17,705 bases of DNA from a virus (taxonomy: Duplodnaviria > Heunggongvirae > Uroviricota > Caudoviricetes): the IMG/VR virus record IMGVR_UViG_2534681773_000018; one strand, 5' to 3'. A program made the translations under genes and the position numbers. Positions 7,213-17,705 of the stretch are shown here, one piece after another. The notes below the pieces were generated by a model. That model did not search any database. It had not been told where the DNA came from and saw nothing but the letters and a program-made list of their open reading frames with translations. Every line of letters starts with the position of its first letter. Position 1 is the first letter of the stretch.

Positions 7213-10107
7213 ATGGCAGTAAAGATTTCAGGTGTACTGAAAGACGGCACAGGAAAACCGGTACAGAACTGCACAATCCAGCTGAAAGCAAAACGTAACA
7301 GCACCACGGTGGTGGTGAACACGCTGGCCTCAGAAAATCCGGATGAAGCCGGGCGTTACAGCATGGACGTTGAGTACGGGCAGTACAGCGTTATTCTGTT
7401 GGTGGAGGGATTCCCGCCGTCACATGCCGGGACCATCACCGTGTATGAAGATTCCCGACCCGGTACGCTGAATGATTTTCTCGGTGCCATGACGGAGGAT
7501 GATGCCCGTCCTGAGGCACTGCGCCGTTTTGAACTGATGGTGGAAGAGGTGGCGCGTAACGCGTCCGCGGTGGCACAGAACACGGCAGCCGCGAAGAAGT
7601 CAGCCAGCGATGCCAGCACATCAGCCCGTGAGGCGGCAACCCATGCGACTGATGCTGCAGATTCAGCACGTGCAGCCAGCACGTCAGCCGGACAGGCCGC
7701 TTCGTCGGCTCAGTCAGCGTCTTCCAGCGCAGGAACGGCATCAACAAAGGCCACTGAAGCCTCAAAAAGTGCTGCCGCTGCAGAGTCCTCAAAAAGCGTG
7801 GCAGCTACCAGTGCCGGTGCGGCGAAAACGTCAGAAACGAATGCCGCAGCGTCAGAACAATCAGCCGCCACTTCTGCATCCACCGCGACCACGAAAGCGT
7901 CAGAAGCTGCCACCTCAGCCCGGGATGCGGCGGCCTCAAAAGAGGCAGCGAAATCATCAGAAACGAACGCATCCTTGAGCGCCAGTAGCGCAGCTTCCTC
8001 GGCAACGGCGGCAGGAAATTCCGCGAAGGCGGCAAAAACGTCCGAGACGAACGCCAGGTCTTCTGAGACGGCAGCGGGACAGAGCGCCTCAGCTGCGGCA
8101 GGCTCAAAAACAGCGGCTGCGTCGTCTGCCAGTGCCGCGTCAACAAGTGCCGGGCAGGCCTCAGCCAGTGCCACCGCCGCCGGAAAATCGGCAGAAAGCG
8201 CCGCATCATCCGCTTCAACAGCCACAACGAAGGCTGGCGAAGCCACTGAGCAGGCCACGGCAGCAGCGAGGTCAGCTTCCGCAGCGAAGACATCCGAAAC
8301 GAACGCGAAAGCGTCGGAAACCCGTGCAGAATCCTCAAAAACGGCAGCGGCATCGTCCGCCAGTTCGGCGGCGTCATCGGCATCATCGGCGTCTGCTTCA
8401 AAAGATGAGGCGACCAGACAGGCGTCAGCAGCGAAGGGCAGCGCCACGACGGCATCCACGAAGGCGACAGAGGCTGCTGGTAGTGCGAAGGCAGCAGCTC
8501 AGAGCAAAAGTACGGCGGAATCTGCAGCAACGCGCGCTGAGACAGCGGCAAAACGGGCAGAGGATATTGCATCCGCCGTGGCGCTTGAGGATGCGAGCAC
8601 GACGAAAAAGGGGATAGTACAGCTCAGTAGTGCGACTAACAGCACTTCCGAGTCACTGGCGGCAACGCCAAAGGCAGTAAAAGCAGCCAATGACAATGCT
8701 GAGAAACGTCTGCAGAAAGATCAGAACGGTGCGGATATCCCTGGCAAAGACACCTTTACGAAAAATATTGGTGCCTGCCGTGCCTTCGGTGGGTCAGTAA
8801 GCACAACAACAGGAAACTGGACGACTGCACAGTTTATCGAGTGGCTGGATTCTCAGGGAGCATTTAACCATCCATACTGGATGTGCAAGGGTTCCTGGTC
8901 TTATGGCAATAATAAAATCATTACTGATACTGGCTGCGGTAATATTCATCTCGCCGGAGCTGTCATTGAAGTAATGGGGATAAAGTCAGCGATGACGATC
9001 CGCATTACCACTCCGACCACATCCAGCGGTGGCGGAACAACCAACGCCCAGTTTACCTATATTAATCACGGAACAGATTATTCACCTGGCTGGCGAAGGG
9101 ACTATAACTCCAGAAATAAGCCAACGGCATCAGAGATCGGGGCGCTACCGTCAGGTGGAACAGCAGTATCATCAGTTAATCTGGCTTCAAAAGGTCGGGT
9201 AGCCGCGCTGACAGACAATACGCAGGGGGCAGCAGGTCTTGAGTTATACGAGGTGTATAACAACGGATATCCAACAACGTATGGAAATATCATTCACCTG
9301 AAAGGGATGACAGCCGTTGGCGAAGGTGAGTTACTCATCGGCTGGAGTGGTACAAGCGGTGCTCATGCTCCGGCATTTATTCGTTCACGACGGGATACGA
9401 CCGACGCAAACTGGTCGCCGTGGGCGCAGCTTTACACCTCGGCTCATCCTCCTGCAGAGTTTTATCCAGTCGGTGCACCAATCCCGTGGCCATCAGATAC
9501 CGTTCCGTCTGGTTATGTCCTGATGCAGGGGCAGACTTTTGACAAATCTGCATACCCGAAACTTGCAGCCGCTTATCCGTCAGGCGTGATCCCTGATATG
9601 CGTGGCTGGACGATTAAGGGCAAACCTGCCAGTGGTCGGGCCGTATTGTCTCAGGAACAGGACGGCATTAAATCGCACACCCACAGCGCCAGCGCATCCA
9701 GTACGGATTTGGGGACGAAAACCACATCGTCGTTTGATTACGGCACTAAATCCACGAATAACATCGGGGCGCATACGCACAGTGTGAGCGGTACAGCCGC
9801 AAGTGCCGGAAACCATACTCATAGTGTCACAGGCGCATCAGCAGTCAGCCAGTGGTCACAAAATGGGTCAGTACATAAGGTAGTGTCTGCGGCCAGTGTG
9901 AATACAAGTGCTGCAGGAGCGCACACTCATAGTGTCAGCGGCACAGCTGCATCTGCAGGTGCTCACGCACATACTGTCGGTATTGGTGCTCATACGCACT
10001 CGGTTGCGATTGGCTCACATGGACACACCATCACCGTTAACGCTGCTGGTAACGCGGAAAACACCGTCAAAAACATCGCATTTAACTATATTGTGAGGCT
10101 TGCATGA
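7213..10107 (+). CDS. stf: Side tail fibre protein (lambda Stf-like), about 964 aa from ATG 7213
   Basis: N-terminus [26 protein letters not shown] matches lambda Stf. The ORF track starts at GTG 7207, but ATG 7213 is preceded by a GGGG run and matches the lambda start. Long Ala/Ser/Thr-rich repetitive segment, a Cys/Trp-containing central domain, and a C-terminal region with repeated GAHxH motifs ending [11 protein letters not shown] as in lambda Stf. Confidence 0.9.
7560..8590 (+). repeat. Imperfect tandem coding repeats (Ala/Ser/Thr-rich, recurring AAKTSETNA / SASTATTKA units) inside stf
   Basis: Recurrent nucleotide motifs such as aaaacgtcagaaacgaatgc / aagacatccgaaacgaacgc and the corresponding peptide repeats. 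The region has few stop codons in any frame, which produces many overlapping alternative-frame ORFs in the track. Confidence 0.6.
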
Positions 10108-10394
10108 TTACGCTCATTCTTTCTGCACCAGTAACCGAAATGGCTGAAGCATTTAAGCGGGTATTTGCAAATGCAGATAATGTGAATATTGTCGGAAAGC
10201 CATTTGAAACAATCAGAGAATTTGACTGCATGGTAAGTGCGGCAAATAGTTTCGGCCTGATGGATGGCGGTGTTGATGCCGCCATTACCACATTCTTCGG
10301 TTCTCAGCTACAGGCCCGCGTTCAGAATCATATTCTTCGTGAATATCTCGGCGAGCAGCCTGTAGGTTCTGCATTTGTGATCCTACCCACGTAA
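10104..10394 (+). CDS. Macro-domain-like protein fragment (putative ADP-ribose binding/processing); 3' end truncated by IS3
   Basis: ATG 10104 overlaps the stf stop (ATGA), suggesting translational coupling. Product contains [21 protein letters not shown], resembling the macro-domain signature (VVNAAN...GGGV..AI). Visibly more AT-rich than stf. The frame runs into the IS3 terminal repeat (from 10378) and stops there, so the last few codons are IS-derived. Confidence 0.45.
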
Positions 10395-10407
10395 TATGGA
10401 CACAGGC

Positions 10408-11274
10408 CTAAGCGAGGTTCTGGTTTTCAAATTGTTCCGGACTGAGGCCGCCACACCAACTGTGCCGCCGCCACCGATTGTAATCACATTCGATATAATT
10501 AAACACCGTTGCCCGCATTATTTCCCGGCTGATAAAGTGTTCTCCATGGATACATTCCACTTTCAGCGAATGAAAGAAGCTTTCCACGCAGGCATTATCG
10601 TAGCAGCAACCTTTTGCGCTCATACTTCCACGCAGATTATGCCGCTTCAGTTGCGCCTGATAATCTGCTGAACAGTACTGGCCTCCACGGTCCGTGTGAA
10701 CGATAACGTTCCGGGGCCTCTTACGCCGCCACAGCGCCATCTGCAGGGCATCGCAGGCCAGTTGCGCCGTCATGCGTGGCGACATTGACCAGCCAATAAC
10801 GGCACGTGACCACAGGTCAATGACCACTGCCAGATACAGCCAGCCTTCATCTGTACGTAAGTACGTGATGTCTCCTGCCCACTTCTGGTTCGGGCCACTG
10901 GCGTAAAAATCCTGCTCCAACAGATTTTCTGACACAGGCAGGCCGTGTGCGCGGTAGCTGACCGGGCTGAACTTCCGGGAGGCCTTTGCCCTCAGTCCCT
11001 GACGGCGCAGGCTTGCCGCCACGGTTTTTACGTTAAAGGGGTAACCCTGAGCACGCAGTTCATCCGTCAGGCGTGGGGCACCGTAACGCTGTTTTGACCG
11101 GGTAAAAGCCGCGAGGACAACGCTGTCGCAGTGTTGGCGGAACTGCTGACGCGTGCTTATCCTTGTCCGCCGCTGACACCACGTATACCAGCCGCTGCGG
11201 GCCACCCGGAGCACGCGGCACATTGCTTTGATGCTGAACTCAGCCTGATGTTTTTCAATAAAGACATACTTCAT
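10408..11274 (-). CDS. insF: IS3 transposase OrfB (DDE integrase-like catalytic domain), 288 aa
   Basis: 288-aa ORF beginning [36 protein letters not shown], recognisable as the IS3 OrfB/InsF sequence. ATG 11272-11274 overlaps the orfA stop in the -1 arrangement typical of the IS3 family. Confidence 0.9.
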
Positions 11275-11569
11275 TTCAGGCGCTTCGCGAAGTATGTCGC
11301 GGCCTTTTGGAGGATAGCCAGCTCTTCATCCCGTTCTGCCAGCTGGCGTTTGAGACGTGCAATCTCGGTAGACATCTCCAGTTCACGTTCAGAAGACGTC
11401 TGCTGATTTTGCTGTTTACTGCGCCAGTTGTAGAGCTGTGATTCATACAGGCTGAGTTCACGGGCTGCGGCAGTAACACCGATGCGTTCAGCAAGCTTCA
11501 GGGCTTCACTGCGAAATTCAGGCGAATGCTGTTTACGGGGTTTTTACTGGTTGATACTGTTTTTGTCAT
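11271..11569 (-). pseudogene. insE: IS3 orfA (InsE-like HTH protein); reading frame appears interrupted in this copy
   Basis: ATG at 11567-11569 opens the expected MTKTVSTSK start and the C-terminal segment ([37 protein letters not shown]) is readable in the frame ending at 11271-11273. No intact ORF joins them in the track: the span is 299 nt (not a multiple of 3) and my hand translation hits an early stop after about 20 codons. Base-level details here are uncertain. Confidence 0.5.
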
Positions 11570-11634
11570 GTGAGTCACCTCTGACTGAGAGTTTACTCAC
11601 TTAGCCGCGTGTCCACTATTGCTGGGTAAGATCA

Positions 11635-12515: not shown

Positions 12516-12540
12516 AATCTCACACCGAGATTATTTTTAT
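12516..12540 (+). terminator. Weak hairpin plus T-run between the convergent tfa and invertase genes (possible terminator)
   Basis: aatctc (12516-12521) / gagatt (12527-12532) with loop acacc, followed by atttttat. The stem is short and AT-rich and overlaps the invertase stop codon. Confidence 0.25.
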
Positions 12541-13127
12541 ATATCAGGTGTCTGATTTTTTGCTTTAGCTCTTAAAATGGTTTGCCGCGAGGTTTTGAAT
12601 TCTTGGGCAATGTCACTTATATTTATACCTGACTTAATTTGCTCTAGTACCCTCTGTATTTGTTCATCATTTAACACAGGTGGGCGACCAAATCGCTTTC
12701 CTGCGCCCCGTGCTCTTAATATCCCTGAATGAGTACGCTCAAGTAAAAGGTCTCGCTCAAATTCAGCGACTGCTGAAATTACTTGCATCATCATTTTTCC
12801 AGGTGGACTGGTCAGGTCAACGCCCCCCAATGCTAAGCAATGCACTTTGATACCTGCTTTGGTCAGTTGTTCCACCGTTTTACTGATATCCATTGGATTA
12901 CAACCGAGGCGATCCAGTTTTGTGACAATCAATGCATCACCTCTTTTCAGTCGATCAAGCAACTGGTTAAAACCAGGACGCTCACTGGTTGCTGCTGAGC
13001 CGCTAATTTGTTCTTCAATTATTTGCTGAGATTTGATGTTAAAACCTGCACTTTCGATTTCCCGACGTTGATTTTTGGTTGTCTTTTCCAGAGTTGATAC
13101 CCGACAGTAAGCATAAATTCGAGACAT
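12537..13127 (-). CDS. Serine recombinase, Gin/Hin/Pin/Cin-type DNA invertase (resolvase/invertase family), 196 aa
   Basis: N-terminal catalytic motif YAYCRVST (active-site Ser), conserved [19 protein letters not shown] and GRPP motifs, and a C-terminal HTH-like tail. It aligns along its length with Gin/Hin as I recall them. Located next to tail-fibre/tfa genes, as pin, gin and cin are. Confidence 0.85.
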
Positions 13128-14226: not shown

Positions 14227-14895
14227 CTATTTTTTCCCTGAAGCGGAAAACATTACTACAGTACCTTGAACCTTGGTTTTAACATTCTCGAAATACTCTG
14301 AGAGTATATGTGTTAAGCCTTCTTCGGAATCTTTTGTGTTTGAAAAGATGCCTTTCTGATTGTAAATGCGCATCAGTTTTTGACCGAAGCTATTGTGCAC
14401 AATTCCATCGCCAAGAATTGTGGCTCCGTATAGAGTTCCATCGTCAGTTAAGGCCTGCGCCGCATTGCGTATTACACAGCTTTTTGTAGATATATTTCCA
14501 GGCAGGCAGTGAAGAAGGTAAAACATGGAAATGGAATCAAATTGACCATGTAACGCCGCGGGATAAGGTTCAAAAACATCATGGTTAATTTTATGTTTAA
14601 TTTTTGATTCCCCAGCCCTTGTAGATGCCGCGTTCAGGCTAGCTTCGTTCAAATCCATTAAAGATATCAGACTACTCTCAGGTACGTGAGTAAGGTAAAA
14701 CCCAGTTCCAACACCAATATCCAGATGGTTGTTACCTAAATGTTCCAGAAAGTGTGGAAGAAGGTGTTCCTTTGTAGGACATCCCCATGCAAGCCGATTT
14801 GATACTCCCAAAACCCACCAGTCATAAAGCTTTAGGGTAAGTGGTGTGTAAATTTTAGCCCCATCATCTGTGTTTTTTTTCATTAATTTCACCAT
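14227..14895 (-). CDS. ybcY: Class I SAM-dependent methyltransferase (ybcY-like), 222 aa
   Basis: Contains the glycine-rich SAM-binding motif LDIGVGTGF. Its position between a tfa gene and a tfaX-like remnant upstream of appY-ompT matches the DLP12 gene order as I remember it. The symbol is assigned by synteny and is not verified. Confidence 0.6.
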   Translation of the reverse strand: MVKLMKKNTDDGAKIYTPLTLKLYDWWVLGVSNRLAWGCPTKEHLLPHFLEHLGNNHLDIGVGTGFYLTHVPESSLISLMDLNEASLNAASTRAGESKIKHKINHDVFEPYPAALHGQFDSISMFYLLHCLPGNISTKSCVIRNAAQALTDDGTLYGATILGDGIVHNSFGQKLMRIYNQKGIFSNTKDSEEGLTHILSEYFENVKTKVQGTVVMFSASGKK

Positions 14896-15212: not shown

Positions 15213-15753
15213 TAAACAGTATGTATATCATAGGTTATTAATTGTGAGTTTTTTCGGTGTGTTATTTGTTTGATGTTATGCTTTTGCGCCCCAAAAGGTT
15301 GTTTAGATGTATTTTATCAATTGATTTTCAATATCGTTTAATAAAGAAAAATTAAGCAAGCTGGATGTTGGTTTTTTGTTAATTGAATGGTTCTAATAAT
15401 GTTTTTTTACTGTTGTTGAATGTGACTTGATAAGAAATGCAAGTAAAAATGATACTCTTTTTATTTTAAATTCAAACGGTTGACATATATATAGCAAGAG
15501 GTTTCAGGTGCGTTGTAGTGAGTTTATGTTAATAAAAAGTATAGTAAGCGTTGAAAAATGTAACTTTGAAATACGTTAGAATAAAAAACAATATACATAT
15601 AATAATTTAATCTTAAATGAAATTTATTAAAATTTGCAAACTATAATTTTGTGTATAAAAATATAAATGCACATCATCCTGATTATGATTGTGTATTTAA
15701 TTGGTTGTTATTTGACTGCTATCAACTTGTTTTAATTTTATGATAGGTGCAAG

Positions 15754-16502
15754 ATGGATTATGTTTGCTCCGTAGTTTTCATCTGTCAATCATTTGATTT
15801 AATTATAAACAGGAGAGTTATCTCGTTCAAAAAAAATTCATTGTTTATTGTAAGCGACAAAATTAGAAGGGAGTTACCAGTATGCCCCTCTAAACTAAGA
15901 ATTGTTGATATAGATAAGAAAACATGTTTATCCTTTTTTATCGACGTGAATAATGAGCTGCCTGGCAAATTTACTCTTGATAAGAATGGCTATATTGCTG
16001 AAGAGGAACCTCCATTATCGCTTGTTTTTTCTCTGTTTGAAGGGATTAAAATAGCAGACTCACACTCCCTTTGGTTAAAAGAAAGACTATGTATATCCTT
16101 ACTTGCCATGTTCAAAAAACGCGAAAGTGTAAATTCTTTTATACTAACAAATATAAATACATTTACCTGTAAAATTACTGGAATAATCAGTTTTAATATT
16201 GAGCGGCAATGGCATTTAAAAGATATTGCGGAATTGATTTATACGAGTGAAAGTTTAATAAAAAAAGATTAAGGGATGAAGGAACGTCATTTGCTGAAAT
16301 ATTGAGAGATACTAGGATGAGGTATGCAAAAAAACTCATAACTTCAAACTCTTATTCTATCAATGTCGTAGCCCAGAAATGTGGCTATAACAGTACTTCA
16401 TATTTCATATGTGCATTTAAAGATTATTATGGTGTCACGCCATCTCATTATTTTGAGAAAATAATCGGCGTCACAGATGGAATAAACAAAACAATTGACT
16501 GA
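15754..16502 (+). pseudogene. appY: AraC-family transcriptional regulator AppY, interrupted by a frameshift in a poly-A tract (split into 172-aa and 66-aa ORFs)
   Basis: N-terminus [21 protein letters not shown] and its position directly upstream of ompT identify appY. The first frame stops at 16270-16272 right after an A7 run (16260-16266). The second AraC HTH ([24 protein letters not shown]...[23 protein letters not shown]) continues in the +1 frame. The span is 749 nt, one short of a 249-aa gene plus stop. Confidence 0.75.
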
Positions 16503-16751: not shown

Positions 16752-17705
16752 TTAAAATGTGTACTTAAGACCAGCAGTAGTGATGAAGTTATAGTTTTCT
16801 ATACCTGCTCCATTTTTGCTGTAGTCTGAAGTGTTATTATTGTGATCATAAAGTGAAGTATTACCTTTTTTATTCGTAACCCGATTCCATGCGCCTTCAA
16901 CATAAACTTTTGCGTTAGGTGTGACGTAATAACCTGCATTGACTGCAACAGAATAGTAATTTTGGTCTTTGACCTTACTGCGATAAGTGATTCTTTTTCC
17001 CGGGTCATAGTGTTCATCGTTATCAGATGATTCCACCCAGCCGCTGTATTTAAATGTGCCACCGAGTTCAAAATCTTCATAACGATAACTTCCAGTCAAG
17101 CCAATGTAGGGCATTTTAAAACGTTGTTTGTAGCCGATTGCCCTTTCTCCATTCGGGAAGGAGCCGATATCATCTCTGAATCCCTCCTCAGAACTGTAGA
17201 TATAGGAACCACCTCTGGCTGTAAAGCTATAACGGCTTTCCTGATATCCGGCCATGAGTCCCAGGCGGTAATTGGGTTCGTTGAGGAGCCAGCCTTTGAT
17301 ATTCAGATCAAATTCGTTGGCATAATTGAGTTGTGTATCAGGGTGTCTACTTTCATCCGTCCAGGTTCCGGGGTTACTGGAATCCATCCAGTCCTGATCG
17401 ACCATATTGCCACCTCGGCTGCCGAGAGTTGTCCAGCCAGCAGCCCCGATAGATATCTGGGGCATCAAATCCCAATTAATTGCACCTTTAATAATTGCAG
17501 CGCTATTGAATTTCCAGTCGAGTTGACTGACTTTTCGGCCTCCTTCTTCGGCTAGATAAACACGCTCTTTTGTTTTTCCGCTCAGAGTTCCAAGACTAAT
17601 GTCCGCATTTATGTTGTCAGGAGTAAACGATAAAGTCTCGGTAGAAGCAAAAGAGCTGATCGCAATAGGGGTTGTCAGGACTATTCCCAGAAGTTTCGCC
17701 CGCAT
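16752..17705 (-). CDS. ompT: Omptin-family outer membrane protease OmpT (protease VII), 317 aa, complete
   Basis: Start codon at 17703-17705 (window edge). Signal peptide MRAKLLGIVLTTPIAISSFA, mature N-terminus STETLSFTPDNINADISLG and C-terminal TTAGLKYTF are recognisable as E. coli OmpT; length 317 aa. Confidence 0.93.
   Translation of the reverse strand: MRAKLLGIVLTTPIAISSFASTETLSFTPDNINADISLGTLSGKTKERVYLAEEGGRKVSQLDWKFNSAAIIKGAINWDLMPQISIGAAGWTTLGSRGGNMVDQDWMDSSNPGTWTDESRHPDTQLNYANEFDLNIKGWLLNEPNYRLGLMAGYQESRYSFTARGGSYIYSSEEGFRDDIGSFPNGERAIGYKQRFKMPYIGLTGSYRYEDFELGGTFKYSGWVESSDNDEHYDPGKRITYRSKVKDQNYYSVAVNAGYYVTPNAKVYVEGAWNRVTNKKGNTSLYDHNNNTSDYSKNGAGIENYNFITTAGLKYTF

Follow-up and report, generated by a model that had tools for sequence, protein, structure and literature searches.

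A single-base frameshift interrupts appY near one end of the prophage-bearing stretch of Escherichia coli DNA analysed here (17,705 nt, hereafter the window). The question is whether the strain has lost this gene, whether the broken frame is a slippage-prone on/off switch, or whether the run of A at the break was misread; the original prediction offered all three options. AppY, an AraC-type protein encoded on a prophage, activates hya, appCBA and genes for acid resistance. It induces the genes for hydrogenase 1, cytochrome bd-II, acid resistance and biofilms, and represses motility (PMC10057817). From comparison with other assemblies, we conclude that the frameshift is most likely not real and reflects a miscalled run of A. 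The seven A at the break would stem from a homopolymer miscounted in draft contig AIGZ01000006.1, probably owing to the sequencing chemistry, and the strain itself would have the normal eight A and an intact, ordinary appY.

appY as written and as restored

The gene occupies positions 15754-16502 on the plus strand and encodes an AraC/XylS-family regulator carried as a cargo gene of a DLP12-type prophage. As written, with its one-base frameshift, the frame read from 15754 ends at a TAA stop (16270-16272) and encodes a protein of 172 aa (15754-16272, plus strand; C-terminus SESLIKKD) that comprises the N-terminal domain only and is without a helix-turn-helix (HTH). We found no Pfam domain match for this product. 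The frame breaks at a run of seven A (A7; 16260-16266, plus strand; hereafter tract 2) that is A8 in intact alleles, where it is read as ATA AAA AAA AGA (I169 K170 K171 R172). The rest of appY lies in the +1 frame (16269-16502, plus strand; from LRDEG to KTID and a stop) and contains the remainder of the first HTH and all of the second. The other A8 tract of the gene, which lies closer to the start (15829-15836, plus strand; codons F25-N28), is intact here and is shortened or lengthened in a few other public assemblies.

Insertion of one A gives an open frame of 249 codons, the product of which is identical to K-12 AppY at 248 of 249 positions. The sole change is T181A, which results from a G at 16293. 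At the DNA level the window gene has 99.8% identity to the annotated appY of 824 complete E. coli genomes. The original prediction was thus right in its identification of the gene, in its coordinates and translation, and in proposing that one added A restores a 249-codon gene. In the restored protein, Pfam models HTH_18 (residues 159-235, E = 5e-16) and HTH_AraC (residues 198-233) were identified, as expected for the two-HTH domain of AraC-XylS regulators.

Orthology to K-12 appY is indicated by sequence identity and by position, as the gene lies in a DLP12-type prophage location with ompT (16752-17705, minus strand) directly downstream. Like its K-12 counterpart in DLP12, the restored gene is preceded by a tfaX remnant and followed by ompT and envY, and its product has the HTH_18/HTH_AraC architecture. 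It differs in that the window frame breaks at codon 172 and in the T181A substitution. Whereas a remnant of DLP12 lies beside appY in K-12, a largely complete lambdoid tail module adjoins the gene in the window. The G at 16293 (plus strand) serves as a lineage marker: it was found in 0 of the 823 complete genomes that have this stretch, and is common to two A8-bearing relatives, L103 and L097, discussed below. The appY allele underneath the break is an ordinary, known allele (T181A); the exact intact protein, with A8 and G16293, is public (P0003) and is encoded on nine public contigs.

The position of the break matters for what a genuine frameshift would do. The original prediction correctly placed it in the A7 tract with continuation in the +1 frame, but described that continuation as running through the second HTH, which is incomplete: the tract forms the codons of K170 and K171, and the break falls within the first HTH. 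With the substitution K170E, AppY no longer binds DNA, and every AppY output that was tested is lost (Derdouri et al. 2023, PMC10057817). If real, the break would be null for DNA binding.

Comparison with assemblies of the same lineage

The window is the opening 17,705 nt of contig AIGZ01000006.1, a draft sequence that we reached by exact look-up of a strain-specific 96-aa open reading frame at an IS3 junction. The match to contig positions 104-17705 is 100%, with no SNPs and no indels. The assembly (GCA_000250195.2) is a 2012 genome from the diarrheagenic E. coli (DEC) collection, the drafts of which have AIG and AIH accessions. Extrapolation of the accession order given in PMC5592225 suggests that the source strain is E. 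coli DEC11E. The same extrapolation also yields DEC10E and DEC14B, which are the labels on 108-aa truncated AppY entries.

Relatives from other projects were found by exact protein look-up of a class I SAM-dependent methyltransferase of 222 aa (14227-14895, minus strand) that carries the lineage-specific substitution H201Y. This homologue of ybcY is intact in the window, whereas K-12 ybcY is a frameshifted pseudogene. One relative, L103 (GCA_036927775.1), has both Y201 and the very rare G16293 in common with the window contig. Over 8,886 bp, L103 and the AIGZ contig are separated by no SNPs and by five one-base indels, and in every case the homopolymer is one base shorter in AIGZ. Three of the five lie in the window: the A8→A7 contraction in appY (16260-16266, plus strand; A8 in L103), a T7→T6 contraction upstream of appY (15372-15377, plus strand) and a T6→T5 contraction in the IS3 copy (11541-11545, plus strand). 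As T7 is present in every lineage relative, the T6 at 15372-15377 is the second under-call in the window; the T5 at 11541-11545 is the third, given T6 in L103. T6 at 15372 is found in many unrelated loci, and we considered it as a common natural allele; this was dropped because all same-lineage relatives have T7. The remaining two contractions are T7→T6 in the ompT-envY spacer and T6→T5 inside envY (positions 18322-18327 of the source contig, L078; ~0.7 kb beyond the window end). The latter splits envY into frames of 49 and 206 aa, and this apparent pseudogenisation of envY in the AIGZ assembly is probably also an artefact.

Because these are five one-direction contractions without any substitution, they point to homopolymer under-calling rather than to evolution. 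The discordance between AIGZ and L103 increases with run length, from 0/163 for runs of 4-5 to 2/20 for runs of 6, 2/4 for runs of 7 and 1/3 for runs of 8. Homopolymer under-calls of the kind produced by pyrosequencing, ion-type and unpolished long-read methods have the same characteristics. They consist of one-base contractions only, in runs of at least 6 and rising with length, occur without SNPs relative to an assembly of the same lineage, and are accompanied by differences at the same kind of site among sister assemblies. All of these were observed here: the differences are restricted to homopolymers, in one direction and SNP-free, the error rate rises with run length, and sister assemblies of the project show the same type of error. 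The error rate of the contig appears moderate, not gross, since the genes of the window apart from appY are intact and relatives agree with the contig at most of the long runs (T8 at 14873, A8 at 15829, T7 at 15402 and A7 at 16328). The intact phage tail genes had at one stage been taken to indicate a clean window and so a real mutation, a reading that was overturned by the same-lineage comparison with L103.

Three further relatives from other projects, two from Logan (L096 and L098) and one from a MEGAHIT metagenome assembly (L097), have A8 and a called appY of 249 aa. L097 also has G16293, and the sample from which it derives contains the IS3 junction of the window. These observations bear on the possibility that replication slippage in A8 recently removed one base in this strain alone, which would have made appY a fresh pseudogene encoding residues 1-172 without the DNA-binding domain. 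Homopolymers of eight are natural slippage hot spots, and appY looks dispensable, as no phenotype has been described for its deletion in K-12 (PMC10057817). L103 might also be a different isolate from the window strain. However, A8 is present in four of four independent relatives (L103, L096, L097 and L098), and the appY lesion is only one of the five SNP-free, one-direction contractions relative to L103, which would be very improbable for real evolution: a genuine deletion would imply that slippage removed a base independently at five sites within 8.9 kb that acquired no substitution. The occurrence of the same error type in sister assemblies of the DEC project likewise argues against it. We consider a private deletion quite unlikely, and the suggestion that the strain is without a functional AppY is not borne out, given A8 in L103 and in the other relatives. 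Were the deletion real, AppY-driven activation of hya, appCBA and gadE would be absent.

Homopolymer under-calling is further supported by the sister assemblies. DEC-project assemblies AIGT, AIHL and AIHM differ among themselves by 0-1 SNP over 6-9 kb, yet by 3-5 homopolymer differences, one of which truncates ompT. The data of this project are, we presume, of pyrosequencing type. Suspicious frameshifts in DEC assemblies were noted independently by Delannoy et al. 2017 (PMC5592225). In all four DEC assemblies that we examined, tract 2 is A7 and the first tract of the gene is A8, a consistency that would be unusual if the errors were purely random. With A8 and no SNPs in L103, five contractions in the window contig and sister assemblies that behave alike, the homopolymer sequencing error listed among the three original options is the one we favour.

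A macro-domain gene that lies downstream of that for the tail fibre is interrupted by an IS3 copy of 1,256 bp (10379-11634). At its junction ~407 bp of the macro-domain gene are gone and there is no target duplication, and the 96-aa junction frame mentioned above is created. This frame recurs on five contigs, which derive from a metagenome and other assemblies; the IS3 insertion is therefore genuine and a marker of the lineage. The side tail-fibre gene (7213-10107) encodes 964 aa; in the closest complete genomes the product has 1,008 aa, and the 132 nt missing here were lost in frame from a repetitive stretch near 8607-8694. The exact 964-aa protein is encoded in three other assemblies. Also present is a gene for a Pin/Gin-type serine recombinase (Resolvase and HTH_7 domains; 12537-13127, minus strand) that adjoins the tail-fibre assembly gene. 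Such a recombinase beside a tail-fibre assembly gene is the usual layout for an invertible host-range segment.

Tract length across public E. coli genomes

The survey was based on 5,426 complete RefSeq E. coli genomes, in 837 of which appY was found. The best complete-genome matches to the window appY have exactly two differences from it, the missing A and G16293. Exact matching with an 86-nt probe identified A7 at tract 2 in 19 of the 837 genomes, and A9 in three, all from one laboratory lineage. The original prediction had pointed to the appY alleles of other strains as a comparison, and the outcome has two sides: A8 is present in ~815/837 complete genomes and in all lineage relatives, and A7 nonetheless recurs in the 19 genomes just mentioned. 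A8 was also found at tract 2 in 19/19 IMG/VR contigs and in 29/31 metagenome contigs. The haplotype of the window, A7 with G16293, was absent from the 5,426 complete E. coli genomes, GTDB representatives, IMG/VR, and JGI/ENA metagenome contigs.

The exact 172-aa product is encoded on 456 public contigs. The ten of these that were read all have A7 together with the common A at the SNP position, and diverse prophage structures. Projection of loci onto the window by BLAST shows A7 in combination with 11 or more SNP haplotypes across the segment from appY to ompT, and several haplotype groups mix A7 and A8. The presence of A7 on many haplotypes makes it homoplasic, the result of recurrent mutation or of recurrent miscalling rather than of an old, inherited pseudogene.

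The frequency of A7 at tract 2 is high relative to control tracts in core genes. A8→A7 contraction was found in 15/5,425 genomes for dgt (0.28%) and in ten genomes for arfB (10/1,418-3,535; 0.28-0.7%), so that tract 2 is contracted 3-8 times as often as these controls (p = 5e-9 and 0.003). At the first A8 tract of appY (15829-15836), A7 was found in 6/835. There is no overlap between the A7 carriers at tract 2 and the generally error-prone assemblies identified from the control tracts. Either miscalling tied to the local sequence context or a true hot spot may lie behind the excess. Some A7 carriers are otherwise clean, including ATCC BAA-196, where it is the only difference from MG1655 in 40 kb, and contig L065. 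These carriers, together with the recurrence of A8→A7 on multiple haplotypes above the dgt and arfB rates, also lend some weight to a private deletion in the window strain. Other cases, e.g., NZ_CP047127, are clearly artefacts. The 11 homopolymer deletions of this K-12 assembly (L037) cluster in ~0.8 kb of AT-rich sequence at appY, with none in the 27 kb around it, which suggests that polishing failed in AT-rich DNA. In STEC434 (NZ_CP129383, L015) the first A8 tract of appY is A9, and the gene is annotated as frameshifted.

It is possible, though we think it unlikely, that tract 2 (at K170) is a genuine recurrent inactivation hot spot, at which real A8→A7 slippage on many backgrounds is tolerated or favoured. 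The affected strains would produce an N-terminal-only AppY, which -1 slippage on A_AAA_AAA might correct at a low level. In effect, a global regulator encoded by a prophage would be attenuated in a leaky and reversible manner.

Slippage, recoding and consequences for gene content

The remaining possibility is that the split frame is a functional slippage device, either a phase-variable A8↔A7 switch or a "savior" frameshift that is partly corrected in expression, by transcriptional slippage or by a -1 ribosomal slip on A_AAA_AAA. Consistent with recoding, the zero frame at the break reads ATA AAA AAA GAT and contains a perfect X_XXY_YYZ heptamer (A_AAA_AAA, about 16259-16266), a -1 slip on which would give the wild-type I-K-K-R-L-R. 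Slippage at poly-A sites is documented (PMC4066793, PMC5009743, PMC4256274), and tract-length variants recur across public genomes. In dnaX-type -1 frameshifting (A_AAA_AAG) there is similarly an in-frame slippery heptamer, and here a stop lies two codons downstream of it. Unlike dnaX-type sites, the window site is without a stimulatory hairpin and without an internal Shine-Dalgarno sequence, and is not conserved. The stretch of 80 nt that follows has a folding energy of -7.8 kcal/mol, weaker than that of shuffled sequences (z = +0.78), so no stimulatory structure was found in it. Inspection by eye revealed no convincing Shine-Dalgarno-like motif upstream of the heptamer.

Transcriptional slippage is also poorly matched to the tract. 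The slippage sites of Citrobacter rodentium tssM1 (A11) and Shigella mxiE, which is also of the AraC family, resemble the window site in having a run just before a premature stop and a downstream domain in another frame. However, those runs are of ~9-11, as in documented bacterial transcriptional slippage generally (PMC5009743, PMC4256274), and the seven A in the window fall short of the ~9 or more A or T expected for programmed slippage. The window split, moreover, is not conserved and is probably absent from the real genome. An out-of-frame organisation is not the conserved state of appY, since the frame runs on through A8 in ~97% of genomes and in all close relatives; the A7 is itself most likely not real in the window strain. 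We know of no use of A7 or A8 tracts as contingency loci in E. coli.

A phase-variation switch is not supported by the sequence comparisons, since all close relatives and ~97% of genomes have A8. The length variation at tract 2 (A7 in 19 and A9 in three of the 837 genomes) is above that at the control A8 tracts, but may consist of miscalls. The on/off switch raised in the original prediction finds no support on the same grounds, with a tract of only 7-8 A and no stimulatory elements. We regard a functional slippage device of any of these kinds as highly improbable.

A miscalled run of A in the draft assembly is the reading that we retain. The apparent appY and envY pseudogenes in AIGZ and similar drafts should not be counted as gene loss, and the AT-rich appY region, where two A8 tracts lie, repeatedly gives rise to homopolymer miscalls in public genomes of E. 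coli. If the frameshift were nevertheless true, the strain would be without the prophage-encoded regulator of hydrogenase 1, cytochrome bd-II and the other functions controlled by AppY.
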